Positions 26,115-39,323 are shown, counted from the stretch's first letter. The stretch is 64,000 nt of DNA from a virus (IMGVR_UViG_3300009082_000002:32001-96000), one strand, 5' to 3'. Program-made: numbers and translations. The notes: a model not told the origin generated them from the letters alone.

Positions 26115-27569
26115 GTGTCGATGGCCAGTGCGTCAGCTAAAGCGATCCGTGTCGACGAGAAGGAAGAGCTCGTCCGCGCCTTTGGCGAGTATGAGGCCAT
26201 CTCCAATGAGACCCTACGACGCGAGATTCTGCTCAACAGCCGATTCGACCTGCTCGCGGAATACGTGCTTGGCATCGAGCTGGAGCAAGTCCACCGTGAG
26301 CTGATCGCATACGCGCTCGAACACCCGGAGTCTCTGCACCTTGCCTTCCGTGGTTGCGGGAAGACGACTTCCTTCGTCTGCGTGTACATTGTCGGCCGCT
26401 TGCTTCAGAACCCGGAGCTTTGTATCCTGATCGCATCGCGCGCCGGACAGTACGCCAAGGCGATCTTGAAAGAGGTCAAGGGCCACCTAGTCAGCGAGCG
26501 GCTGGTCAGGATCTTCGGCGAGCAGATTGGCGAGAAGTGGGAAGAGACCGAGATCGTCGTCGGGCGAAAGAAGCGAAATACGAAGGAAGCCTCGGTCACG
26601 GCGCTCGGCGCCGAGGGCTCGATGACCGGTCGGCACTTCGACATCATCTTCTTCGACGATGGCGTGGACTTGGCGAACAGCCGCACGCGTGGCCAGCGCG
26701 AGAAGATCAAGGAATTCTACTACACGACTCTCGACCCGTGCCTGAAGCCGGGTGGAGAGCGCAAGGTCGTCGGCACACGCTACCATCCGCACGACCTCTA
26801 TGGCTGGCTCTCCGCTCACGAGTACAAAGGTTGTGCGCAGATCCTTCCGGCCCTGCACGAGGTCCGCGATGGCGGCGGATCGGTCACATACTACTCCAGC
26901 GCGCCAAAGCGCTTCACAGTCGAGTACCTCCTGGGCAAGCGATCCACGATCCCGACCTTCTCGTGGGTCACGCAGTTCCAGTGCACGGCGGAGCGGTTCC
27001 AGGGCAAGGTCTTCAAGCCGGAGTACTTCGAGGCCGAGGGCTTCTTCTTCACCGGCCCATTGCCGACCGGCCCTCTCTTCCAGTCCGTCGACCCTGCCGT
27101 GACCGAGGACACAAAGAATGACTACTTCGCCCACATGACTGGCGTCGCTGATCACGAGGGCCACGTATGGGTCGACGTCTTCCACAACATCCGTATCGAG
27201 TTTCCGAAGCAATCGCAGTTTTGCCACGATGAATTTGAGGCGCGCGATCCGGTGCGACTTGGTATCGAGAGCAACGCATACCAGAAGGCGCTCGGCCAGC
27301 AAATTGTCGCCGACTACCCGGACCTCAAGGGCAAGGTGATCGGCGTTCCGACCGACAAGGACAAGATGACTCGGGCCCTGAAGTTGACAGCCTATTTTGA
27401 GGCGGGCAGAATCCACTTCAGACCGGAGCACAAGGAACTCGTCGAGCAACTGCTGGAGTTCCCGGACGGAGAACACGATGATCTTTTCGACGCCCTGTAT
27501 CTGCTAGTCTTGCTCGGGACGCGGATGCGGGTGAAGAAGAAGCGGCGCAAAGAGCCGGGCGTCCTTTGA
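26115..27569 (+). CDS. terL: Terminase large subunit
   Basis: Walker A AFRGCGKT, Walker B TGRHFDIIFFDD, GTRYH..D, nuclease VDPA / IESN / HDDLFDAL. Confidence 0.95.
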   Translation: MSMASASAKAIRVDEKEELVRAFGEYEAISNETLRREILLNSRFDLLAEYVLGIELEQVHRELIAYALEHPESLHLAFRGCGKTTSFVCVYIVGRLLQNPELCILIASRAGQYAKAILKEVKGHLVSERLVRIFGEQIGEKWEETEIVVGRKKRNTKEASVTALGAEGSMTGRHFDIIFFDDGVDLANSRTRGQREKIKEFYYTTLDPCLKPGGERKVVGTRYHPHDLYGWLSAHEYKGCAQILPALHEVRDGGGSVTYYSSAPKRFTVEYLLGKRSTIPTFSWVTQFQCTAERFQGKVFKPEYFEAEGFFFTGPLPTGPLFQSVDPAVTEDTKNDYFAHMTGVADHEGHVWVDVFHNIRIEFPKQSQFCHDEFEARDPVRLGIESNAYQKALGQQIVADYPDLKGKVIGVPTDKDKMTRALKLTAYFEAGRIHFRPEHKELVEQLLEFPDGEHDDLFDALYLLVLLGTRMRVKKKRRKEPGVL

Positions 27570-27580
27570 AGGGAGCAGGC

Positions 27581-29407
27581 ATGGCAGATCAGAAGGTGGT
27601 GAGGATGCGACGGCGCCCGGTCGTGGGCTCCGCGAAGTCTTCTCCCAGCGACGCAGTCGAGAGCGGTGCAGTTCACATCGTGGACCACGCGTCTCGAGCT
27701 GTCGTCAAGGCGCTGGTGATCGAGGCCGACGCGGAGAAGGTGCCGGTGCCGACGTCCCAGGTCATGCCCGACGATCCCTTTCAGTCGCTCCTCGACAACC
27801 GTCAGATCCTCGCGCCGCCACTCGACCCGCGGCTGCTCGCGTCGCTGTGGGAGTACAACTCCCACCTCGGCCCGTGCATCGCGACGATGATGGTCAACTG
27901 CGAGAGCTTCGGCTATCAGTTCGAGCCTCGCATCCGCGTCAACGAGGACACGTCGAAGGCGGTGCGCCAGCGCATCGAAGAGGAGCGCCTCATCCTCGAC
28001 AACTTCTTCGGCAACTGCGTGATCGAGGGCGACGACAGCTTCACCGGTCTACGGATGCGGAAGCGGCAAGACGAGGAGGCCATCGGCTTCGCGGCGTGGG
28101 AGGTCATCGAGGTCAACGGCGACCTTCTCGGCTTCAACTACATGCCAGCTCATACCGTCCGGCTGACGGGGCTCGACGAAAAGCGGGTCCGTATCGGGCG
28201 CAAGCTCCTCGTCCGCGGGGCCAGCGGTGTCTTCTCCTACGTCGAGCGACCGGTCTGGCGGCGGTTCCGCAAGTTCGTCCAGGTGCGCGGGACCAAGATG
28301 AGGTGGTTCAAGGAGTACGGCGACCCGCGCATGATGAACGCGGACTCTGGCGAGTACGTCGACGACCCCGCCAAGCTCCCGGTTCACAAGCGGGCCAACT
28401 CCGTCCTCTTCTTCGCGCTGCCCGCGCCGCGCACGCCATACGGCATCCCGCGCTACATCGGCAATCTTCTCGGGGTCTACGGCTCGCGCGCGACCGACGA
28501 GATCAACTTCTTCACCTTCGAGAGCAACAACGTGCCGTCGATGGTCGTGATGGTCAGCAACGGGATGCTGACCGAGGGCTCGGTGGATCGGATTCAGAAG
28601 TTCGTTGAAGCGCAGGCCAACGGCCAGCGGAACTACAGCCGCTTTCTCATCCTCGAAGCGGAGACCGACAGCGAAGGTCTCGGCGACCCGGGCCGCGTCG
28701 CGCTCCATATCGAGCCGCTCACGAATCAGCAGCGGACCGACGCTCTCTTCACCGAGTACAAGAAGCAGTGCAAGTCCGATGTGCGTCAGAGCTTTCGCAT
28801 CCCGGACCTTTTCTTCGGCGAAGCCTCATCGTCTGCCGGAGGCGCGGTCGGCGCGATGGAGATCATGAGAAAGCTCACGGATGAACAGGTCTTCATGCCG
28901 GAGCGCAACGCCTTCGACGACCGCATCAACAAGCTCATCATTCCGGCGCTGGGCGTGGTCTATCTGAAGTTCAAGAGCAACACGCCGGAGACGACGGACA
29001 ACAAGGATCTCATCCGCATTCTCGCAATGGCCGAGAAGTCCGGTGGCGTCACCCCACGGATCGCTCGCGAGGTACTCAACCGCGTGGTCGGGCAGAACCT
29101 CGGCGACGTCACGGATATCGAGCCCGACGTCCCCTTCTCGCTCCAGGTCGCGGAAGCTGCACGCAGTCAAGGCGATCCGCGCACAGCGCTCTCCGTGCCC
29201 GGTACCAACTCGCTCCGCAGGATGGGCGCGACGACCCGCGCCGAGCTAGGGCTGGAGTCCACGGCCAAGGCGGAGGACGGCGACGAACCGTGGGAAGGCG
29301 AGGCCGTCATCGCAAGCCTCGGCTTGCTCCACAACAAGATCGCCGAGGAGCAAGCTCGCCGCGCTGGCAAGATGGTCAAGCGCGAGCGGCCGAAGCCCGT
29401 CGAGTAG
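27581..29407 (+). CDS. Portal protein (PBSX-like)
   Basis: Follows TerL; IG.AAWEV, P.HTVR, YGIPRY, FF..N.VP, SFRIP motifs; GGAG SD. Confidence 0.9.
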   Translation: MADQKVVRMRRRPVVGSAKSSPSDAVESGAVHIVDHASRAVVKALVIEADAEKVPVPTSQVMPDDPFQSLLDNRQILAPPLDPRLLASLWEYNSHLGPCIATMMVNCESFGYQFEPRIRVNEDTSKAVRQRIEEERLILDNFFGNCVIEGDDSFTGLRMRKRQDEEAIGFAAWEVIEVNGDLLGFNYMPAHTVRLTGLDEKRVRIGRKLLVRGASGVFSYVERPVWRRFRKFVQVRGTKMRWFKEYGDPRMMNADSGEYVDDPAKLPVHKRANSVLFFALPAPRTPYGIPRYIGNLLGVYGSRATDEINFFTFESNNVPSMVVMVSNGMLTEGSVDRIQKFVEAQANGQRNYSRFLILEAETDSEGLGDPGRVALHIEPLTNQQRTDALFTEYKKQCKSDVRQSFRIPDLFFGEASSSAGGAVGAMEIMRKLTDEQVFMPERNAFDDRINKLIIPALGVVYLKFKSNTPETTDNKDLIRILAMAEKSGGVTPRIAREVLNRVVGQNLGDVTDIEPDVPFSLQVAEAARSQGDPRTALSVPGTNSLRRMGATTRAELGLESTAKAEDGDEPWEGEAVIASLGLLHNKIAEEQARRAGKMVKRERPKPVE

Positions 29408-29416
29408 GATCGAAGG

Positions 29417-32400
29417 ATGATCCTCGCAGCGCGCAAGCTAGGTCCGATGGATGCCATCTTCCGGTCGATGACCGACGAGCAACTTGCGACCGCGAAGGCG
29501 GTCGCTCGCGAAGCTCTCCAGTGGTCGGGCGTACTCAAGGCGGCAGATGTCTATCTCGGCGTCGACGAGGATCTCTCCGCGACGCTCCTGCACAAGTGGG
29601 ATGCCAAAGCGAAGGAGCAGATTGACAAAGGCGCCAAGGTGCTTGCGAAGGCGCAGAAGGGCGAGGTTGTCCAGTCCACGCTGAAGGGTACGTTGTGGAA
29701 GCTCGGCAAGGTGATGGGCGAGGAGTATGGCGAGGCCGTGTTGCCCGACTTCATCCGCGCGACGCTACTGACCTGGAGTCTGGCAAGCAAGGAAACGATG
29801 GGCCGACTTCAGCTCAAGTGGTCAACCGAACTTGTCGACCAGAACGCCGCAGCTCGGCTTTCCAAGTTCCACACCTATTGGGTCGGAAAGCACTACGAAA
29901 CTAGCATTGCGAATTCGCTCCAGATCGCCACGCGGCAGACCATCATCGAAGGCGGACTTGCTGGCACGCAGGCAGCCAACGCCTTCCGCGACATCGCCTC
30001 GAAGTACTTGGCCGGCAAGGGCGAGTCCTTCCCCGAGGTTCCGAAGGGCTGGACTGGCACGACGGACGAGTACTTTGCTGGGCTCGCGAATCACGTCGGC
30101 ACACAGGCCCGCGTCTTCAGCCGACTCGAATCCTACGAGCGCGTCGGGATCACGACCTACACCATCGTCGCCGTCCTCGACAACCGGACGAGCGATATTT
30201 GCCAGATGATGCACGGGCAGACATTCACGGTCGAGCAAGGTCTCGGCGTCGCGGAGACCTGGACGGAGGAGTACACTCCAGAGGCAGTCAAGGAGAAGGC
30301 CGGCTGGATGCGCGCGCAGGACGCAGCCAAGCTCGCCGGGCTGTCGGACTACAAGCCCGGCACGGTCTCACCAAAGATCAGCCCGAAGGGAATGGACGCA
30401 CTGGCCGAGGCTGGCATGGCGCTTCCGCCGTACCACTTCCGCTGCCGGACAGACATCGTCGCGGAGCAGGAGGTCATGACCTTCCCGAGCGGCGGCGAGC
30501 CGACTTACAAGCCGGTGAAGCCGCCGAAGGCCGAATCGCCGAAGCCGCCGCCGGCCGCGCCTACGCCGCCATCCAAGGCGACGGGCGGATTCCCGTGGCA
30601 GATGTCCCAGCTCACGTCGGTTGAGAAGTCCGCGAAGGGAATGCACGCCAAAGCCTTCTTCCACGACCCGGACGGCAACGAGTGGATGTTCAAGCCCGCG
30701 CCGGAGGGGCTGCGTTTTCGTGCAGAGGTCGAGAAGCTGGCTGCCGATGCGGCGCGCGCGCTCGAAGTCGACACGGCCGACGTCTTCATGGTTGAGCACG
30801 AAGGAAAGATCGGGACGATTCAACGCCTCTTCAAAGACATCAAGCACGACGGGCTCACCAAGGTCGGCGTCCAGGGCTTGACGCAGGAGCAGGTCGCACA
30901 GCTCCAGCGCCAGCACATTTTTGACTGGCTCATCGGGAACAACGACGGCCACATCGACAACTTCCTCGTCTTGAAGGACGGCAAGCTCGTCGGCATCGAC
31001 CGAGGGCAGGCCTTCCGCTATTTCAAGACAGACAAACTCGCGCTCGACTACAACCCCAATGCGCGCTATGGGATCAAGGTCTTCTACAACGACGTCTTCG
31101 CAGCGGCACGCGACGGCAAGTTGCCGACTGGCGTAGAGATGCTCGGGCTCGACGCGCCGGAGATTGCCAGTCTGGTTAAGAAGGCCGAGTCGCTGTCCGA
31201 CGAGCAGTGGCTTACGATCTGGCGGCCGTACATCGACGGCGCGATGAAGAACAAGAGCCTCGCCTACGGCTCGCGCGCCGCCTTTGAACGCGAGCTACTT
31301 CGACGGAAGAACCAGCTAGGGAGTGATCTCGACGAGTTCTATCGCGGCCTCCTCGGAAAAGGACGCGCGGCGCGTCGGACAGCGGAGACGCAGAAGGGTG
31401 TCCTGACTCCGGTTGACAAGTCCTTCGTGAGTGAGATGCAAGCCGCGAAGAACCGCGGCAAGTCCGTGCTCGTCGCGTCGGAAGAGATCGAAAACGGCAA
31501 CGTCCTCGTCTACACCTACGCGGACGGGACGGTCGTGGTCGAAGGCAAGATGCGGAAGCTCGCCGACGAGATGGTGCGGGCGCAGCTTGCTGGCCCGCAG
31601 GCTGCGGGCGCAACGCCGGGGACCGACTCGCTGTGGGACGACGTGCTCTCCTGCATCAAGTCTTTCAATCACCATCTCGGGCCAGGCGGCAGCGGTACGA
31701 TCCCGGACAGCAAGCAACGTCTTTTCGTGCGGACGCTCAACGCGGCAAAAAAACAATGGGCCGAAGGCTGGACCGTACCGGGCGGGACGCAGGCTGGACA
31801 GATGGGTGAATACTACGTCAAGCTCCTCCAGCAGTATGGGACCGAGTCGCTCGGGATGCGGCTGACCACAACGACAAAGAAAATGCTCGGCGTCAAGAAC
31901 CAGCCGTTCAAGGTGCCAGGCGTGAAGGCCAAGGCACTCGCTGGTCGCGTGAAGCGGTCGAGCATCGAGAGAATCTACGAGGAGGAGCGCAAGCTGGTCC
32001 GCGGAGTGATCAAGAACAAGCACGGCGAGATTGCGAGTCAGTCCACCTTCGGATGCGGAATGGATGAGACCAAAGAGATGATTGTGGCTGTGCTCGATGA
32101 CGGCACGGAGATCCACTACATCCCACACAACGGATATAGGCAGGGCCAGGCGTACTCGAAGCAAGGCCGCTTCAGGATTAAGGTGCAACCGGCTACCGGC
32201 GCGAAGGACGTCACGCCGAAGCAAGTCCAGAAGGCACTTGACGCCATCGGTGATCTCGGCGTCTCGCCGAAGCTGATGACCGAGGCCGACTTCGAGTTGC
32301 TCTACTTGCAGAAAAACCAGTTCGCGATGGGCTACGCGAACGATGCGGCTTTCGCCAACATCCCGGCCAACGGCTCAACCGAGGAAAAAATCCAGGCGTA

Positions 32401-33067
32401 CCTCGACGCCTTCAGAAAGAAGCTGCGGAAAAATCCGCGTTCGCTGCCCGGCTACGATCCGCGGCCGGTCTACTACAGCGGGGACAACGCGGGCATTCCG
32501 CGTTTCCGGCGTTTCGACATTGACCGGAAGAAGCTAGCAGAGGCGGACCTTGAATTCACACACAGAGTTCAAGGGGGCGCGGATGAAGTGCTTCTTTCGA
32601 TCATCGACGGAGAGTCTGGCGGCTTGATCTCGACGGAGGAGAAGCTCCGTCGCGGAGTTGAAATCAGCGGGATGAGCCCTGGCGAGGACCAGATGACCGG
32701 CGGTGCGCAATACGTTTTCGCGCGGGCGAAGGGGATTGGCCGGGAGCGCAACTGGAACATGATCATCTTTAAGAAGGAACTGGCACTCGACACGAACATG
32801 GTCTCCTATTCGACAGACAAATTCGGGTGTATGGAGCCAGGCAGGAAGGAAGCGACTCGCGCGAAGACGTTTCAGAAGTTGATGGGTTTCCGCAAATTCG
32901 ACGCTAATGAGTCGCTCATCAAAAACGAGATTCCGCTGGACATGTGGGAGCACGTCATCGTCAGGCGGTCCACGCGGGTCAAGCTACTCGATGAACTCGA
33001 AAAGCGTGGCGTGAAGACACTTGGCGGGAAGCCCGTCGAGGAGTTCGTGATCGGGCTCGGGAGGTGA
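29417..33067 (+). CDS. MuF (SPP1 gp7-like) head protein fused to a HipA/PI3-4-kinase-like domain and a C-terminal putative toxin domain
   Basis: AVLDNRTS.IC..MHG and PPYHFRCR (MuF); WMFKP, FDWLIGNNDGH.DN, IDRGQAF (kinase); position after portal. Confidence 0.85.
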   Translation: MILAARKLGPMDAIFRSMTDEQLATAKAVAREALQWSGVLKAADVYLGVDEDLSATLLHKWDAKAKEQIDKGAKVLAKAQKGEVVQSTLKGTLWKLGKVMGEEYGEAVLPDFIRATLLTWSLASKETMGRLQLKWSTELVDQNAAARLSKFHTYWVGKHYETSIANSLQIATRQTIIEGGLAGTQAANAFRDIASKYLAGKGESFPEVPKGWTGTTDEYFAGLANHVGTQARVFSRLESYERVGITTYTIVAVLDNRTSDICQMMHGQTFTVEQGLGVAETWTEEYTPEAVKEKAGWMRAQDAAKLAGLSDYKPGTVSPKISPKGMDALAEAGMALPPYHFRCRTDIVAEQEVMTFPSGGEPTYKPVKPPKAESPKPPPAAPTPPSKATGGFPWQMSQLTSVEKSAKGMHAKAFFHDPDGNEWMFKPAPEGLRFRAEVEKLAADAARALEVDTADVFMVEHEGKIGTIQRLFKDIKHDGLTKVGVQGLTQEQVAQLQRQHIFDWLIGNNDGHIDNFLVLKDGKLVGIDRGQAFRYFKTDKLALDYNPNARYGIKVFYNDVFAAARDGKLPTGVEMLGLDAPEIASLVKKAESLSDEQWLTIWRPYIDGAMKNKSLAYGSRAAFERELLRRKNQLGSDLDEFYRGLLGKGRAARRTAETQKGVLTPVDKSFVSEMQAAKNRGKSVLVASEEIENGNVLVYTYADGTVVVEGKMRKLADEMVRAQLAGPQAAGATPGTDSLWDDVLSCIKSFNHHLGPGGSGTIPDSKQRLFVRTLNAAKKQWAEGWTVPGGTQAGQMGEYYVKLLQQYGTESLGMRLTTTTKKMLGVKNQPFKVPGVKAKALAGRVKRSSIERIYEEERKLVRGVIKNKHGEIASQSTFGCGMDETKEMIVAVLDDGTEIHYIPHNGYRQGQAYSKQGRFRIKVQPATGAKDVTPKQVQKALDAIGDLGVSPKLMTEADFELLYLQKNQFAMGYANDAAFANIPANGSTEEKIQAYLDAFRKKLRKNPRSLPGYDPRPVYYSGDNAGIPRFRRFDIDRKKLAEADLEFTHRVQGGADEVLLSIIDGESGGLISTEEKLRRGVEISGMSPGEDQMTGGAQYVFARAKGIGRERNWNMIIFKKELALDTNMVSYSTDKFGCMEPGRKEATRAKTFQKLMGFRKFDANESLIKNEIPLDMWEHVIVRRSTRVKLLDELEKRGVKTLGGKPVEEFVIGLGR

Positions 33068-33073
33068 GCACCG

Positions 33074-33502
33074 ATGGGTCGGTACTCCACGCGTGGCGAC
33101 AAGGCAACCATGGCCGCGGCGCAGGCGCACTTCAACCAGCTCATCAAACGATACGGCGGGGTCGTCGTCGAGCCGTTCTTCGCTGACGAAGACGGCTCCG
33201 AGTTCGCTGCTGCCGGCTTGCTGCCGACCGACCTCGTGATTTTTGATGAGGACGACCGCCGCTTCGGCTGGAGCTTCGGAACTTGCCCGCACGTCCTTCG
33301 GTTCCACGAGGCGCGGATCGATGACGTCGATCTGATCTTGCTCGGGTACATGCGCGGCGACGACGAGCAGTTGACGGGCGTGGTCGTCTCTGGCATCCTC
33401 TTCGGCGTCGACGCGGAGACGCTCAAGCAGGGGAAGAAGGACGTCGGCGGGGAGCTGTGGAAGCAAGCGGAGGCTGACTTGCTGGAGGCGATGAGTGGCT
33501 GA
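33074..33502 (+). CDS. Acidic hypothetical protein, candidate immunity protein
   Basis: GGAGGTG SD; directly after the MuF fusion. Confidence 0.6.
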   Translation: MGRYSTRGDKATMAAAQAHFNQLIKRYGGVVVEPFFADEDGSEFAAAGLLPTDLVIFDEDDRRFGWSFGTCPHVLRFHEARIDDVDLILLGYMRGDDEQLTGVVVSGILFGVDAETLKQGKKDVGGELWKQAEADLLEAMSG

Positions 33503-33854
33503 CCGGACCTACACCGCGGTTTTCGTCCAGCGAATGGAAGCCGACGACCTCACTACCATCGCCGCGCTCGCCTTCTGGGAACGTGACGCCTGTGTACTCC
33601 CGGTCCCTGGCTTCGAGCAAGCCGCGCTTCTCTGGCACCATCGCCTTCTCGTGGCCAGACAGCACGGCGTCACGCCCCAGGAATTCTATGAGGAGTGGGA
33701 CGGGCACAACGGCGTGACCTACGGCTTCGGACCGCCGGAGCGGGTGCGCGCCCGAAGCGCGGCTGACGCCTGCCGGAAGGTACTCGCACAGCACCCGAAC
33801 TTCGGCGGCACCGTCAATTGGGATTCCGCGCAGGAGTTCGGCCCGCAGCCGTAG
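33495..33854 (+). CDS. Hypothetical protein, candidate immunity protein
   Basis: GGAGG SD; overlaps the upstream stop. Confidence 0.55.
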   Translation: MADRTYTAVFVQRMEADDLTTIAALAFWERDACVLPVPGFEQAALLWHHRLLVARQHGVTPQEFYEEWDGHNGVTYGFGPPERVRARSAADACRKVLAQHPNFGGTVNWDSAQEFGPQP

Positions 33855-33864
33855 CGGAGGGGCG

Positions 33865-34038
33865 ATGAGCAGAGATCCGCTTGTTGAGATCGAGCAGCGC
33901 TACCGCGCGAAGAGGCTCTCCGCTCTCGGCCTCGCCAGCATCATCAGACGAGCCTGCGACACCTTTGAGGCATCCGAGCGACTGCGCAAGCGTTGGTCCG
34001 CACGCAAGGCCGTGATCGATCAGGAGGCCGGTCGATGA
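33865..34038 (+). CDS. 57-aa hypothetical protein (not in ORF track)
   Basis: GGAGGGG SD, ATG 33865, stop overlaps the polyprotein ATG (ATGA). Confidence 0.5.
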   Translation: MSRDPLVEIEQRYRAKRLSALGLASIIRRACDTFEASERLRKRWSARKAVIDQEAGR

Positions 34039-37000
34039 AGATCAAGGACATCTCGCCGACTTCCTTGCGCGGAGTAAAGGACCAGGAGCTTCTCTCGCTC
34101 CACCTTCGGACTCATCAGCTTTACGGCGCGAACTTCGGGCCGGACGCCCCGCCAGAGCGCGGCTACCGCGACGACACGGGAGACACGGCCAAGGACGGCT
34201 TGAGGCTCGACGAGGAGACCGCGCGGAAGATCTGGCGCGGCGAGGTCAAGGCGGTCACCTTCTCCGACGACCCCGGTGACGTTGAGCGCGCTCTGTTCCT
34301 GCTGTCGCCCGGCTTCGCCTACGGCATCATCCGGCTTGACGAGACCGACACCGACGACCACAAGTACAAGGTCGACTACTTCCGCGCTTTCGAGGTGCCG
34401 CTCACATTCAAGGGCACGGGCGACGGCCTGCTCGTGACGGGAGTCGAGATCACGTCGGAGGAGTCGCCGCTGTCGCTGGAAGACCTGGTCCACGCTCACC
34501 AGTTCATCCTCGACGAGATGAACCGCCGGAAGATGCGCCACCAGTGGGCCTCGCAGCTCGACGACGAGACCAGCCCGGGCGAGGAGATTGAGAAGGCGAC
34601 CGGACCTTTCAAGCGCTGGGGTGGGTCTGCCCAGTACGCAGCAAAAATCGCGAAGTACGTACCAGCGAACGCTGGCGCGTACATCGAGCCCTTCGCTGGT
34701 GCGGCCAGCGTGTTTTTCTCACTGACCGACACGCCGAGGAAGCGCGTGCTGGCCGACCTGGACCCGGAGCTAGTTCACGCCTTCAAGATGATCCAGGGCG
34801 CGGCGAAGAACGGGCTCATCAAGGCGCTCGAAAAAAAGGACCGTGTTGTCAGCGAAAAGCAGTGGCAGAAGTTGCGGCATCGGATTCCGAGCGGCGACGT
34901 CGAGCGCGTTCATCGGTTCCTGTACCTGCTCGGCGGATCGTGGTCCGGCGTGCGGAGTGGCGCGCGCCCGAACAAGAAACGAGTCGGTCAGATTTCCTAC
35001 GATCCGAAGCGGCTGGAGAAGTTCATCAAGCCGTTGCAGGGCGTGACGCTCAAGAACCAGAACTGGCAGAAGACGCTGAAGGACAACGACGCGCCGGACG
35101 CCTTCTTCTTCATCGATCCGCCGTACCCGGGCGAGTGGGACAAGAACGCCGACGACACAGGCACGGACGGCAAGCAGTTCGACGTCGAGGCTCTTGTCGA
35201 GGCGATGAAGGATCTGAAGGGTGGCTGGCTTCTCGTTCTTGGCGACACCAAGACCCAGACGGATGCGCTGGCGAAACTGGAGAAGGAAGCCGGCGCATCT
35301 CGCTTCAAGATCCAGTTGAGCGAGGCTGCGAGTTCTGGTGGGCACAAGGAAGCCTATCGGTACTTCGCGATGCGCCCGCTTCAGTCCCGCGTGCGGAAGG
35401 CCGACGACGTTGGCGTGAGCCGCGACCAGGTACTCGACCTCATGGAAGAGGCCGGCAGCTTTGTGGTGGTACCGAGTTATGTGTCGCTCGTCGGCTCCGT
35501 CGTGACCGGCGAGGATGACCAGTCGGCACACGACATTGATCTGCTTGTTCGCGATGACGAGATCGATTCCAAGGTCGGGCTCAAGCTGGACCGCCTCTTT
35601 CCCGCGTCGATGCGCGACAAGGTCCACTACATCCCCGACCCGCAGGGACCGAATTGGGATCACCTGCCGCTGTACGATCTGGTCCTGCGGAAGCGCAGCG
35701 CGCTGGAAGTGGTCGAGGTCGATGAACCGGAGTACCACCCCTTCCTGTCCGGCGATGTGCGCCGCTACGGCGAGCAAGTCGCGAAGGGGAAGTTCACCAT
35801 CGTCCGTGGAATCTGGGGCTCGCCCGGCGGCAAGGCTTTTCTCGCAAAGCGCATCGCCACCGTCATCCCGCCTCACAAAATCTACGTCGAGCCGTTCGCT
35901 GGCGGTGGCGCGGTTCTCTTCGCGAAGCCGCCGGTCGAAAAGGAAGTCGTCAACGACCTCGACAGCGAGATCGCCTTCGCGTGGCGGTTCGTCAGCAAGG
36001 TCACGGACGACCAGCTCGACGCGCTCCGCAAGATGAACTGGGTGGCGAGCGGCAAGCTGTTCGCCAAGCTGCGTGACATGAAGCCGCCGTCCGATCCGGT
36101 CGAGCGATTTCATCGGTTCATGTACCTCTACCGCTGGAGCATCAACGGCAACCGCGAGAAGACGCACACGATGCCGCCGACCTACGAAGGGCTCCGGCAG
36201 CAGGCAGTCGAAGCGGTCGAGCGGTGTCGCGAGCGCGTGCATGGCCTCATCGTGCGGAGCGCCGACTACGAGAAGGTTATCGACGAGTTCGACAGCAAGG
36301 ACACCTTCTTCTTCATCGATCCGCCGTACAAGCATTATGATGCCCAGCTCACCGAGGAGAAGAAGCAAGAGGACTTCGACGAGGAGCGATTCGTCGAGGT
36401 GCTGAAGAAAATCAAGGGCAAGTTCCTTGTGACCTACGGAATCCGCAGCGGCACGGATCTCTTCAAGGGCTTCACGGTCCAGCGGTGGCAGCACCGAGGT
36501 CGGCCCGGGCCGGCCGTGGGCGGCAAGTTCCAGAAGGTCACGACGCTCATGGTCTCAAACTATCCGCTGCCGCAGCGGACGCGCAAGGCGAAGGTGGGGC
36601 TCATGCAGCCCTTCACTCCGCTGAAGGCGAAGGGCGGGTACCATCAGGGCGAGTTCTTCGAGGCCGACCCGCTGTGGGATCTCTGGGCTGGCCCTGCGAT
36701 CAAGGACGGGAAGACCGTCGCCGTCGAAACCAAGTTCGACGGAATTCGGATGGTCATCCACAAGGAAGGCGACAACGTCGCGATCTACACCGAGGATAAG
36801 AAGCGCGACCGCGCGAGCATCCTTCCGGACTTGGCCGACGAGGTTCGCAAGCTGACAGTCGAGAACGTGATCCTTGACGCCGAGGTCGTCTGGTGGAAGG
36901 GCAGCAAGCCGCTGGCCCGTCACGACATGATGGCGCTCGTTGTCGGCAAGGACCCGATCAAGGGCGAGGATATCCGGGCCAACGTGTTCGACGTCCTGTG

Positions 37001-39323
37001 GTTCGGCGGCGAGGGCAGCCTGGCCGATGAGTCGTGGGAGGATCGCCAGTCGTACCTGCGCAAGGTTCTGCCGAAGGATGGGAAGCATCTCATTCGCGTG
37101 GTGCCGCGGCTGGTCAACAACCGGCGCGAGTTCGATGCCGCACTCAAGGCTGCGCGTCGAGCAGTCGGCAGCGAAGGCGCGATGCTGAAGCTCGCCAATG
37201 CGCCGTACGATCTGGAAGGCCAGACTGGCGCGTGGGCCAAGCTCAAGGACGTGTACGAGATCAAGTGTGTCGTCATCGGTGTCCGCAAGAAGATCCCGAG
37301 CGAGCAGGAGGACCCCGGCTTCAAGAAGGACCCCTCGCGCTGGAACTACGCCGGTATCAAGGAGCCCAGCGCTTTCACCTACCGCTGCGCCGTCCGTGGT
37401 GAGGGTGGCAAGCTCATCCCCATCGAGGGCGAGCGGACGTACACCGGCTCGGATCTCAAGGTGCGGTGGGTCGAGAAGGGCCAGAAGGACCCGGTGACGG
37501 GTGAGACCGCGAGCGAGAGCGAGTGGCGCGGTACCGACGATCCGAAGCTCTGGAAGATGGGGCTCGGCTTCAACAACCGCGACGTCGGCGACACCGAGTA
37601 CGGCACGACCTACGGCACCGGAGTCGAGGCGAAGATCGGTGACGTCATCACGGTCTCTCCGGTCTTGGTCCGAGAGTGGGTCGGGGACAGCGGCCGGCGT
37701 CACTACTCGTGGACCTTCCCCATCGTGCGCGAATCCGACCCGACACGCGACGAGCCTGACCGCGTCGAAGACCTGCGGCGCATCGCAGCGGCGAGCCGGC
37801 AGCGCGCACCGGAGAAGATGCCGAGCGAGGAAGCCGTCGAAACCGCGGCGGTGTCGAAGTCCGTCGCGAGGATCGCCCACCTGCAGAAACAGCGGCGCGG
37901 CGACCTGGACCCCGACGAGACCAAGCTCAATCGCGAGGAGGAACGCGAACGGCAGGAGAAGATCACGGGCGACCCGTACATGGTCGAGCAGAAGGCCAAG
38001 GCCAAGGCACGGTTCGTCTTGCAACAACACTATCGCGGGTTCTGGTCGCCGGACGAGCGGAAGCAACTGCGAGACGGAATCACGCGGGCTCGCGAGCTGG
38101 CCGAGTCCGACAAGAAAGATGAGGCCAAGGATCTGCTCAAGGGTCTCTGGCAGGAGTACCAACCGCTCATGCTCAAGGCCAGCATCGCAGAGATCCGCGA
38201 GGCAGCCGAGGCCGCAGACAACGCAGGCGAAGGCGAGGTCAGTCCGGCGGTTGCGCGCCGTCTATCGGAAGCGGTGCCGATGTTCGATGAGCTCGAAGGG
38301 GTCGAAGATCGGATCGTCAACCGGGGCAACGTCCACACCGACCTTCGGATGGAGTCGCCGTCCGGCGACTGGCTGATCGGCTGGACGCTGGATACGCCGA
38401 AGCTGGCCCTGCAGACGCTCGACGGGAAGGCGCATGACCTCCTCCGGTCCTACGTGATTGACAACAAGCCGGACGACAACGCGCTCGCCCAGCGCAAGCT
38501 GGTCCAGCCCGAGAACTGGCTGGCCATCGTCAACGAGAAGAAGCCGATCTACCAGACCGCTCCGGGCGACGTCGGCTCAACGCGCGGCACCGCTGGCGAG
38601 TACCACTACATTGACTCGGGCGTTGTGATCTTCGGCGTGCAGAAGTCCGACTATCACGAGTACTTCTTCTTCCCCGAGAAGCACAAGGGCTGGGCCGGTC
38701 GGTGGGGGCTGCAGCTCATCGAGGGGAGCCCGAGCTACGCCCGCGCGCCGAGCGAGTTCTGGATGGCCAACCGGCCGAAGGAAACGCAGACCCCCTACAT
38801 CCAGACGCACGACCTCGACGAGGAGGAGAAGAAGGCCAAGACCGACAAGATCGACCTCGTGTGGAACCCCGACACGGTCGAGGCACTGAAGGCGGTCGGG
38901 TACGAATCGCTCGCCGACGTGTCGAAGTCCGCTGGCGGCGAGCTTGAACCGATCAGCGTCAACGTCCGAATCGTGAAGGCGGCGAAGGAGGAGCGGTACG
39001 TTCTCGGCGTTGTGATGAAACCGGATGACGTCGACGCCCACGGAGAGATTACCACGGCAGCCGAGATCAGGAAGGCTGCCCACAATTTTCTTGTCAATGG
39101 TCCGAAGATCGGCTATCAACATGAAGAGACACCTGGAGGTCTGATCTTGATCGAGAGCTTCCTGGCCCCCGCAGAGTTCAAGCTCGGTGGCGAGACGATC
39201 ACTGTTGGCACCTGGCTCATCGCGGTTCGCGTGAACAACGACAAGGTGTGGAAGGCCGTCAAGGAAGGGAAGATCACCGGCTTCAGCATCGAAGGTTACG
39301 CAAAGAAAGTGCCGCTCGAATAG
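34035..39323 (+). CDS. Polyprotein: Dam MTase, NTase-like, Dam MTase, ATP-dependent DNA ligase, LigD phosphoesterase-like, XkdF-type prohead protease
   Basis: Two EPFAG..DPPY sets (DPPY at 35115 and 36318); VGS..DID (35490-35540); ETKFDG (36726), LDAE, FDVL, EGAMLK, WAKLK; FVLQQH..HTDLRME; PDDVDAHG..AAH.F..H..IES..GTW..GFSIEG. Confidence 0.85.
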   Translation: MKIKDISPTSLRGVKDQELLSLHLRTHQLYGANFGPDAPPERGYRDDTGDTAKDGLRLDEETARKIWRGEVKAVTFSDDPGDVERALFLLSPGFAYGIIRLDETDTDDHKYKVDYFRAFEVPLTFKGTGDGLLVTGVEITSEESPLSLEDLVHAHQFILDEMNRRKMRHQWASQLDDETSPGEEIEKATGPFKRWGGSAQYAAKIAKYVPANAGAYIEPFAGAASVFFSLTDTPRKRVLADLDPELVHAFKMIQGAAKNGLIKALEKKDRVVSEKQWQKLRHRIPSGDVERVHRFLYLLGGSWSGVRSGARPNKKRVGQISYDPKRLEKFIKPLQGVTLKNQNWQKTLKDNDAPDAFFFIDPPYPGEWDKNADDTGTDGKQFDVEALVEAMKDLKGGWLLVLGDTKTQTDALAKLEKEAGASRFKIQLSEAASSGGHKEAYRYFAMRPLQSRVRKADDVGVSRDQVLDLMEEAGSFVVVPSYVSLVGSVVTGEDDQSAHDIDLLVRDDEIDSKVGLKLDRLFPASMRDKVHYIPDPQGPNWDHLPLYDLVLRKRSALEVVEVDEPEYHPFLSGDVRRYGEQVAKGKFTIVRGIWGSPGGKAFLAKRIATVIPPHKIYVEPFAGGGAVLFAKPPVEKEVVNDLDSEIAFAWRFVSKVTDDQLDALRKMNWVASGKLFAKLRDMKPPSDPVERFHRFMYLYRWSINGNREKTHTMPPTYEGLRQQAVEAVERCRERVHGLIVRSADYEKVIDEFDSKDTFFFIDPPYKHYDAQLTEEKKQEDFDEERFVEVLKKIKGKFLVTYGIRSGTDLFKGFTVQRWQHRGRPGPAVGGKFQKVTTLMVSNYPLPQRTRKAKVGLMQPFTPLKAKGGYHQGEFFEADPLWDLWAGPAIKDGKTVAVETKFDGIRMVIHKEGDNVAIYTEDKKRDRASILPDLADEVRKLTVENVILDAEVVWWKGSKPLARHDMMALVVGKDPIKGEDIRANVFDVLWFGGEGSLADESWEDRQSYLRKVLPKDGKHLIRVVPRLVNNRREFDAALKAARRAVGSEGAMLKLANAPYDLEGQTGAWAKLKDVYEIKCVVIGVRKKIPSEQEDPGFKKDPSRWNYAGIKEPSAFTYRCAVRGEGGKLIPIEGERTYTGSDLKVRWVEKGQKDPVTGETASESEWRGTDDPKLWKMGLGFNNRDVGDTEYGTTYGTGVEAKIGDVITVSPVLVREWVGDSGRRHYSWTFPIVRESDPTRDEPDRVEDLRRIAAASRQRAPEKMPSEEAVETAAVSKSVARIAHLQKQRRGDLDPDETKLNREEERERQEKITGDPYMVEQKAKAKARFVLQQHYRGFWSPDERKQLRDGITRARELAESDKKDEAKDLLKGLWQEYQPLMLKASIAEIREAAEAADNAGEGEVSPAVARRLSEAVPMFDELEGVEDRIVNRGNVHTDLRMESPSGDWLIGWTLDTPKLALQTLDGKAHDLLRSYVIDNKPDDNALAQRKLVQPENWLAIVNEKKPIYQTAPGDVGSTRGTAGEYHYIDSGVVIFGVQKSDYHEYFFFPEKHKGWAGRWGLQLIEGSPSYARAPSEFWMANRPKETQTPYIQTHDLDEEEKKAKTDKIDLVWNPDTVEALKAVGYESLADVSKSAGGELEPISVNVRIVKAAKEERYVLGVVMKPDDVDAHGEITTAAEIRKAAHNFLVNGPKIGYQHEETPGGLILIESFLAPAEFKLGGETITVGTWLIAVRVNNDKVWKAVKEGKITGFSIEGYAKKVPLE

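Follow-up and report, generated by a model that had tools for sequence, protein, structure and literature searches.

A MuF-anchored fusion of a kinase and an ADP-ribosyltransferase

SPP1 gp7 and Mu F are components of the phage head, and T4 Alt is a proven injected ADP-ribosyltransferase (ART). Fusions of MuF with effector domains are thought to ride in the capsid and to leave it together with the DNA (PMC5512222, PMC5576092), and MuF-anchored polyvalent effectors that include an ART are an established class (PMC5512222, PMC9503650, PMC5576092, PMC7302621); ARTs are the commonest protein-modifying domain among polyvalent proteins (PMC5512222, PMC9503650). Here we describe a gene of this class in the viral DNA stretch IMGVR_UViG_3300009082_000002:32001-96000, analysed over its full 64,000 nucleotides (nt) and referred to below as the window. 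The gene (29417-33067, + strand) is one open reading frame (ORF) of 1216 amino acids (aa) free of internal stops, and its product comprises, in this order, a MuF domain, a proline-rich linker, a kinase, a middle domain, an N-subdomain and an ART. In our view the protein is probably a head-packaged, injected two-enzyme effector that modifies host macromolecules early in infection.

With the polyvalent proteins described so far (PMC5512222, PMC9503650) the gene product shares a MuF anchor joined to several enzymatic domains, a place in the head gene module and DNA methylase neighbours. Judged by its predicted domains, it combines at least two effector domains with a virion-targeting domain in one ORF, and would thus count as a polyvalent protein as defined by Iyer et al. 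2017. Both enzymes, however, are of other types. While the ARTs of the described proteins are N4-like/HYD2 (H-Y-D) or Alt/VIP2 (R-S-E), the one found here is H-Y-E and DarT-like; and while their kinases belong to a C-lobe-less Ser/Thr/Tyr group from phages of Verrucomicrobia and Bacteroidetes, the present one is HipA/PI3-4K-like. Furthermore, kinase and ART form a fixed pair here, which sets the protein apart from the other polyvalent proteins; a kinase is never mentioned by Jamet et al. (PMC5576092). Minor-capsid/VIP2 ADP-ribosyltransferase fusions are known from actinobacteriophages, including Microbacterium phages Percival and Goodman (PMC7302621). Two such proteins, McProf gp54 and Onyinye gp16, share the kinase (29% and 23% identity; E-values of 1e-70 and 5e-55 with the hidden Markov model (HMM) of the family, respectively), carry it upstream of a C-terminal ART and are encoded in or beside the head module, but their ART is of the R-S-E VIP2 type (PF03496) and counterparts of the middle domain and N-subdomain are absent.

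The structures of DarT (8baq, 7omu, 7omv and 7yk3) show the same H-Y-E-type layout, with a conserved arginine about 20 aa before the tyrosine. Unlike in DarTG systems, there is here no sequence match to DarT and no DarG macrodomain or NADAR partner, and the ART is part of a virion-protein fusion, encoded by a phage rather than as a host defence. T4 Alt, an ART that is packaged in the head, enters the host along with the DNA and modifies host proteins, offers the mechanistic precedent; it is, however, an R-S-E ART with another capsid-targeting signal and without a kinase. HipA and PI3/PI4 kinases have in common with our protein the loop G-N-x-D-x-H-x-x-N, a DFG-like I-D-x-G and an ATP-binding lysine, although the HipA N-terminal subdomains and HipB are absent here, and the locus is not a toxin-antitoxin module. 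The T7 kinase is a functional analogue, differing in that it is an early gene product and not a virion protein, and unrelated in sequence.

The DarT-like ART family, its HipA/PI3-4K-like partner and their fixed coupling are absent from the literature that we searched, an earlier listing of the ART family under another name in supplementary family lists being possible. What we describe as new is a large unannotated ART family with a predicted DarT-like fold (732 clusters), unseen by Pfam, PADLOC and PDB sequence models, the strict pairing of this ART with an atypical kinase, and a conserved cassette made up of the fusion, two small ORFs and a DNA methyltransferase.

The C-terminal tip has a predicted ART fold nearest to DarT

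We modelled aa 880-1216 together with 18 homologues using AlphaFold, which yielded a model of the ART with a predicted local distance difference test score (pLDDT) of 83.4 and a predicted template modelling score (pTM) of 0.80. When the model was compared to 48,161 PDB representatives with VIA-align, independently of Foldseek, the four best matches were all DarT: 8baq (DarT1; Z 12.0, root-mean-square deviation 3.4 over 157 aa), 7omu (Z 11.6), 7omv (Z 10.4) and 7yk3 (Z 9.8). These are followed by SopF (Z 7.4), Tpt1 (Z 6.8), CopC and OspC3, so that the top eight are ARTs without exception. The match to DarT spans model residues 154-337, that is, aa 1033-1216 of the protein (32513..33067 on the + strand, stop codon included); a first-pass annotation of the window, made from the sequence alone, had foreseen an ART-fold tip at aa 1030-1216, and model and structural matches bear it out to within a few residues. 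We take aa 1033-1216 to be, as far as the model can tell, an ART fold of the H-Y-E class whose nearest relative is DarT. The best matches in the BFVD are viral proteins, namely iridovirus 422L (E-value 2.7e-5) and baculovirus ORF30/ORF32. These probably belong to the 'ORF28' family, which has been related to DarT by Iyer et al. (PMC9503650).

The key residues of the ART are H1049, R1078, S1087, D1091, Y1099, F1101, R1103, D1134 and E1165. On the model, the members of the putative triad lie at the ends of strands: H1049 closes strand 167-171, while Y1099 and E1165 open strands 220-226 and 286-290, respectively (model numbering), which agrees with the placement of histidine, aromatic residue and catalytic glutamate on strands 1, 2/3 and 5 of an H-Y-E ART. 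In an alignment of 31 ART sequences S1087, D1091, G1095, G1096, F1101, D1134 and E1165 are invariant, and H1049, R1078, Y1099 (replaced by phenylalanine alone) and R1103 nearly so; across the family of 732 clusters the H, Y and E positions are among the most conserved columns. In DarT2 the catalytic residue R51 precedes Y71 by 20 aa (PMC9967889); the conserved R1078 precedes Y1099 by 21 aa, as compared via alignment ranges. Tpt1/KptA-like RNA 2'-phosphotransferases were considered as an alternative family and set aside, as their folds match less well (Z 6.8 and 4.8) and a conserved Arg-His dyad is missing.

The first-pass annotation had also remarked on more A/T-ending codons towards the end of the gene. 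The dip in GC content at third codon positions (GC3) is real but modest: the last 184 codons, which encode the ART, have a GC3 of 0.74, as compared to 0.79-0.83 in the rest of the gene and 0.79 in the large terminase gene (TerL), and two other stretches of the gene, codons 121-180 and 621-680, show similar dips, to 0.68. Since the dip is marginal and the architecture fixed, we rejected a recent horizontal acquisition of the tip.

An atypical kinase is paired with either of two unrelated ARTs

The kinase domain covers aa 395-645 (30599..31351, + strand). Pfam HipA_C (cut-off 30.5 bits) is matched at 31.3 bits by the whole protein and at 36.4 bits by the kinase segment alone; PI3_PI4_kinase is matched with an E-value of 7e-5, under its own cut-off, and PF07804 is annotated in close homologues. 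In a profile search of the PDB with the kinase domain, the catalytic loop and the DFG region align, with marginal E-values, to DNA-PKcs, LepB, a HipA_C domain protein (PDB 7ab3-5) and Fam20. The key residues are K426, D510 and N515 of the catalytic loop GNNDGHIDN, and D528 of IDRG. Among 184 unique kinase domains K426 is kept in 183, and D510 and D528 in all 184; the three residues are invariant across three mycobacteriophage lineages as well. The domain can thus be assigned, by sequence, to the HipA/PI3-PI4-kinase-like atypical superfamily, and the earlier call of an intact-looking kinase is upheld by the score above the HipA_C cut-off and the near-invariant catalytic residues. HipA N-terminal subdomains and an adjoining HipB were not found: the catalytic core alone matches (best stretch aa 488-521), and the neighbouring genes are head genes. 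Every motif coordinate of the first-pass annotation proved exact on translation, including DWLIGNNDGHIDN at nt 30923-30961 in the catalytic loop region, FKP (aa 425-427) and IDRG (aa 527-530) in the kinase, and H1049 (nt 32561), YVF (nt 32711) and NESLIKNEIP (nt 32906) in the ART.

In GenBank phages, matches to the whole protein hit the kinase domain alone, and do so in mycobacteriophage minor capsid/ADP-ribosyltransferase fusions: McProf gp54 consists of a VG15 minor capsid domain, then the kinase, then ADPrib_exo_Tox, and Onyinye gp16 of the kinase followed by ADPrib_exo_Tox. Retrieval with a kinase profile gave 57 proteins, 54 of which end in an ART. The DarT-like module accounts for 15 of these, PF03496 for 29 and a homologous VIP2-type tail for 10 (five tails were tested, and all five give a sub-threshold PF03496 match at the C-terminus); in the remaining three proteins, two of which look truncated, no ART was detected.

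On a quick maximum-likelihood tree of 86 kinase domains, the VIP2-associated sequences form a clade (Shimodaira-Hasegawa-like approximate likelihood ratio test support of 95) apart from those associated with the DarT-like ART, with three long branches left unplaced. The ART-type label changes two to three times on this tree, versus about 29 times in shuffles. Since the kinase tree splits by ART type, the type of ART would have been fixed early and have co-diverged with the kinase. What is constant is, therefore, 'kinase plus ART' and not one particular ART. That the kinase is almost always joined to an ART, and that this ART can be of either of two unrelated types, speaks for a mutual dependence of the two activities. 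This interdependence suggests the hypothesis that the enzymes modify one target sequentially or that one controls the other. In Legionella a kinase-fold enzyme, SidJ, controls the ART SidE, which provides a precedent for one such relation.

Two further observations concern the kinase-containing proteins. The kinase-like domain of about 250 aa in McProf gp54 and Onyinye gp16 (L001:5980-6759 and L002:4989-5801, respectively) is unannotated, the GenBank names covering the capsid and ADP-ribosyltransferase parts only. Mycobacterium phage Phrappuccino gp195 (L165:1-6090), a hypothetical protein of 2030 aa encoded beside a 'virion structural protein', has the kinase at its N-terminus and no Pfam-recognisable ART, and either is an exception to the pairing of kinase and ART or hides a third type of ART.

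The domain order is fixed across the family

The 575 aa that follow the kinase match no Pfam model. An exhaustive search of 1.84 billion representatives retrieved 732 relatives of this stretch at E <= 1e-3 and 266 at E <= 1e-10, the family size of 732 being given in clusters at 50% identity; in nearly all 732 the stretch aligns whole, as one C-terminal unit. Local HMMs cut it into three parts, aa 646-880, 881-1032 and 1033-1216. The first-pass annotation had listed about 400 aa of unknown sequence between kinase and tip, and this holds for the first of the three parts but not for the second. The N-subdomain (aa 881-1032; 32057..32512, + strand), made up of short strands and three helices, is a constant companion of the ART, present together with it in 149 of 150 representatives, and its helices are covered by the structural alignments to SopF, CopC and OspC3. 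The conserved middle domain (aa 646-880; 31352..32056, + strand), found in 132 of the 150 representatives, has no recognisable fold: its model (pLDDT 77, pTM 0.54) has no Foldseek match and matches generic helical bundles alone with VIA (Z <= 7.7), which is no evidence of a new fold. A search of the ESM Atlas with aa 646-1032 gave no usable match.

In IMG/VR we found 255 positive contigs, and in the 80 loci inspected the order MuF-kinase-middle domain-N-subdomain-ART is kept wherever the contig spans the gene; the ART ends 0-9 aa short of the stop in nearly every complete gene. A scan of 185,579 species genomes with the back-translated motif yielded 73 loci. Two of these (L107 and L123, Streptomyces typhae) are false, while the other 71 belong to the family and share its architecture. 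The true members, which are prophages, come mostly from Desulfobacterota, Hydrogenedentota, Verrucomicrobiota and Nitrospirota; the cultured carriers include Desulfosarcina alkanivorans PL12, Ectothiorhodospira shaposhnikovii DSM 243, Desulfocarbo indianensis, Geminisphaera colitermitum TAV2 and Syntrophus buswellii DM-2. With 732 clusters and an order that is fixed in 80/80 viral and 71/73 genomic loci, the whole module appears to be under purifying selection.

Several homologues depart from this layout. Among 50,697 GenBank phage records the ART domain is found in Actinomycetia phage DSL-LC01 alone, in a head-module 'hypothetical protein' of 3290 aa (WJZ48510.1, L091:4801-14670), where it is internal (aa 2906-3056, family HMM E-value 5e-17); the kinase, middle domain and N-subdomain are all absent from this protein. 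The metagenomic protein P0114 (1064 aa) has no kinase and carries the middle domain, N-subdomain and ART twice in tandem. Of 25 large homologues examined, four contain NUDIX, which may hydrolyse ADP-ribose or NAD, two contain inteins and one matches DUF3626, the ART family of SopF, while others have Rho_N, KOW or SAP domains.

Proposed function and alternative explanations

The N-terminal part of the protein (aa 1-350; 29417..30466, + strand) had been called a MuF core, and its matches to PHROG minor-head families (phrog_13868, E-value 2e-15; phrog_115 'minor head protein', 5e-10; phrog_9907, 7e-10) and its position next to the portal gene agree with this. The motif PPYHFRCR (nt 30425-30448, aa 337-344), an instance of PPxHxxCRC, also supports the assignment. 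Profile match and gene position directly after the portal would together place the protein in the MuF (Phage_Mu_F/SPP1 gp7) family. The Pro/Lys-rich linker that follows (aa 351-394; 30467..30598, + strand), read from the translation, has the peak GC of the whole gene and differs in length among homologues.

We propose that the MuF domain would place the protein in the capsid next to the portal, with the flexible linker tethering the kinase and the ART, both of which would go to work once a new cell has been infected. From the analogy to T4 Alt and to SPP1 gp7/Mu F we infer that the protein is packaged in virions and ejected with the DNA; the conservation of their residues suggests that both enzymes are active, and they may cooperate on a common host target, or one may regulate the other. 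Three points lead us to read the protein as an injected effector: the place of MuF proteins in the head, the presumed injection of MuF-effector fusions and the precedent of T4 Alt. A putative 'second cargo route', as the first-pass annotation had it, is consistent with the MuF context, again by analogy. For the kinase half, a recent study (PMC13645617) offers a precedent in the T7 kinase, which is reported to disarm host defences by broad phosphorylation.

Several points weigh against this reading. The tip is linked to ARTs through its fold only, the sequence models of ART families giving no match: Pfam DarT (PF14487) is matched by one of 19 family members, at an E-value of 0.053, and by nothing in the phage genome at E <= 10; ADPrib_exo_Tox (PF03496) has no match to aa 980-1216 at E <= 10; PADLOC finds no ART, and neither do phmmer and two profile searches of the PDB. 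In Foldseek searches of the PDB the first 25 or so matches are almost all ARTs, the best E-value being a weak 4e-3. The correspondence of H1049 to H13 of DarT2 is inferred from alignment ranges. A sister phage, L006, has serine at the position of the ART histidine (L006:7436-8005), and both L006 and L005 (L005:8947-9504) carry phenylalanine for the tyrosine, although the window protein keeps both H and Y. At the other end of the protein, PF04233 scores 18.8-21.8 bits on the window sequence itself, under its cut-off of 29.6; the model is matched by 20 of 25 homologues (best E-value 5.7e-16).

As to what the ART would modify, a protein has close to an even chance, a nucleic acid, as for DarT, is a tentative second candidate, and NAD+ or a small molecule is unlikely. 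Were the DarT-like option to be true, such that the ART modifies DNA, a chemistry hitherto known from defence against phages would for the first time have a counterpart carried by a phage. A more elaborate version, in which phages would turn DarT chemistry to offence and which we regard as speculative and decidedly unlikely, would have the predicted DarT-like ART ADP-ribosylate host single-stranded DNA (at forks or transcription bubbles) on entry and thereby arrest the host, with the kinase licensing or cooperating with it and the two small downstream ORFs and the methyltransferase sparing the phage genome; the kinase-ART pair would then be an obligate two-enzyme machine whose ART half comes from two unrelated clades.

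An alternative that we consider improbable would class the fusion with the MuF polymorphic toxins of Jamet et al.: its C-terminal enzymes would be antibacterial, serving competition or lysogeny decisions, and the two small downstream ORFs would provide immunity to them. The MuF N-terminus joined to an enzymatic C-terminus is as expected for such toxins, many members of the family reside in proviruses and bacterial genomes, and the small ORFs immediately behind it, a feature of 89% of MuF toxins (PMC5576092), are of families that are conserved along with the fusion. These ORFs, however, have no recognisable antidote domain, nor does the genome encode Macro or NADAR. The tip, moreover, is not polymorphic: the first-pass annotation had raised variable tips as a possibility, and instead the kinase-middle domain-ART module is the same in close and distant homologues alike (150 representatives, 80 viral and 71 genomic loci), the type of ART following the kinase phylogeny rather than being shuffled. 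Temperate phages are the group in which this class of toxin was defined. The window is, in contrast, bases 32001-96000 of a complete viral contig of 107,406 bp with direct terminal repeats, and no tyrosine or serine integrase is encoded in this genome.

Less probable still is that the enzymes do their work before injection, within the producing cell or the procapsid, for instance marking phage DNA or head proteins during packaging for protection. This would fit an ART fold nearest to the DNA-modifying DarT and a MuF domain at the portal, the site of DNA entry, as well as the linkage to DNA methyltransferases: where there is enough sequence, a methyltransferase of about 800 aa (phrog_27806/phrog_56) is found at 46 of 58 viral and 27 of 40 genomic loci, and the window has a methyltransferase domain in its polyprotein. 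The linkage may, however, go back in part to common descent of the head module, as many of the loci are close relatives, and we know of no precedent for ADP-ribosylated phage genomes. Furthermore, DarT acts on single-stranded DNA (PMC11543638), while packaged DNA is double-stranded. We give as little credence to one or both domains being catalytically dead, with a structural or binding role such as head scaffolding or that of a DNA-pilot protein. In its favour, phrog_9907 ('minor head protein and DNA pilot') and SPP1 gp7 exemplify non-enzymatic MuF roles, L006 lacks the ART histidine and the middle 235 aa bear no enzymatic signature. If catalysis were lacking, however, it would be difficult to account for the near-invariance of precisely the catalytic residues, namely K426, D510 and D528 of the kinase and E1165, S1087, D1091, the GG pair and F1101 of the ART, across sequences that are 25-35% identical overall.

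Head module, host and downstream genes

The fusion gene, which we read as coding for an injected effector, is part of a head module with the order large terminase (26115-27569, + strand; phrog_38, E-value 2.5e-63), portal (27566-29407, + strand; phrog_12, E-value 1.9e-22), MuF-kinase-ART gene, two small ORFs, a polyprotein of 1776 aa, a scaffold-like gene and the major capsid protein. It starts 10 nt past the stop of the portal gene, and since a 46%-identical homologue is conserved from residue 5 on, the long start of the 1216-aa ORF is the real one. The polyprotein (33993..39323, + strand) joins a D12 DNA methyltransferase to an ATP-dependent DNA ligase and ends in an XkdF-type prohead protease; in distant relatives its place is taken by a DNA methyltransferase of about 800 aa. 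The major capsid protein is nearest, at about 35% identity, to those of Streptomyces phages of about 128 kb. With a GC content of 60-65%, an actinobacterial host is plausible for the phage.

The 107-kb phage genome encodes no Macro, NADAR or NUDIX domain. An ADP-ribosylglycohydrolase (PF03747, 40.7 bits; open frame of 305 aa; L086:1291-2049 = G000:C1:27579-28337) lies about 4 kb before the window and is a possible eraser of ADP-ribosylation; as a partner common to the family it was rejected, being present in a sister phage (L088) and absent from nine other related contigs.

When immunity genes were looked for, we found that two small conserved ORFs without known domains follow the fusion. Directly downstream is an acidic ORF of 142 aa (33074..33502, + strand), which is 32% identical to the ORF at the same position in L005, the locus of the 46%-identical homologue, and has no Pfam or PHROG match. 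It is the positional counterpart of a family of ORFs of about 165 aa, to which homology could not be demonstrated (hhalign 10%). The second ORF, of 119 aa (33495..33854, + strand), is a probable remote member, as judged from its sequence, of a family of about 115 aa (hhalign 69%, E-value 4e-5) that is present at 46 of 58 viral and 33 of 40 genomic loci, counts that are not independent since many of the loci are close relatives. At most other loci the fusion is followed by the ~165-aa family, the ~115-aa family and the ~800-aa DNA methyltransferase, in that order. The window polyprotein has no match to the HMM of this methyltransferase family, and both match phrog_56; the methyltransferase is free-standing in distant relatives (for example L029:2525-4909 and L022:7252-10791) and a domain of the polyprotein in the window.

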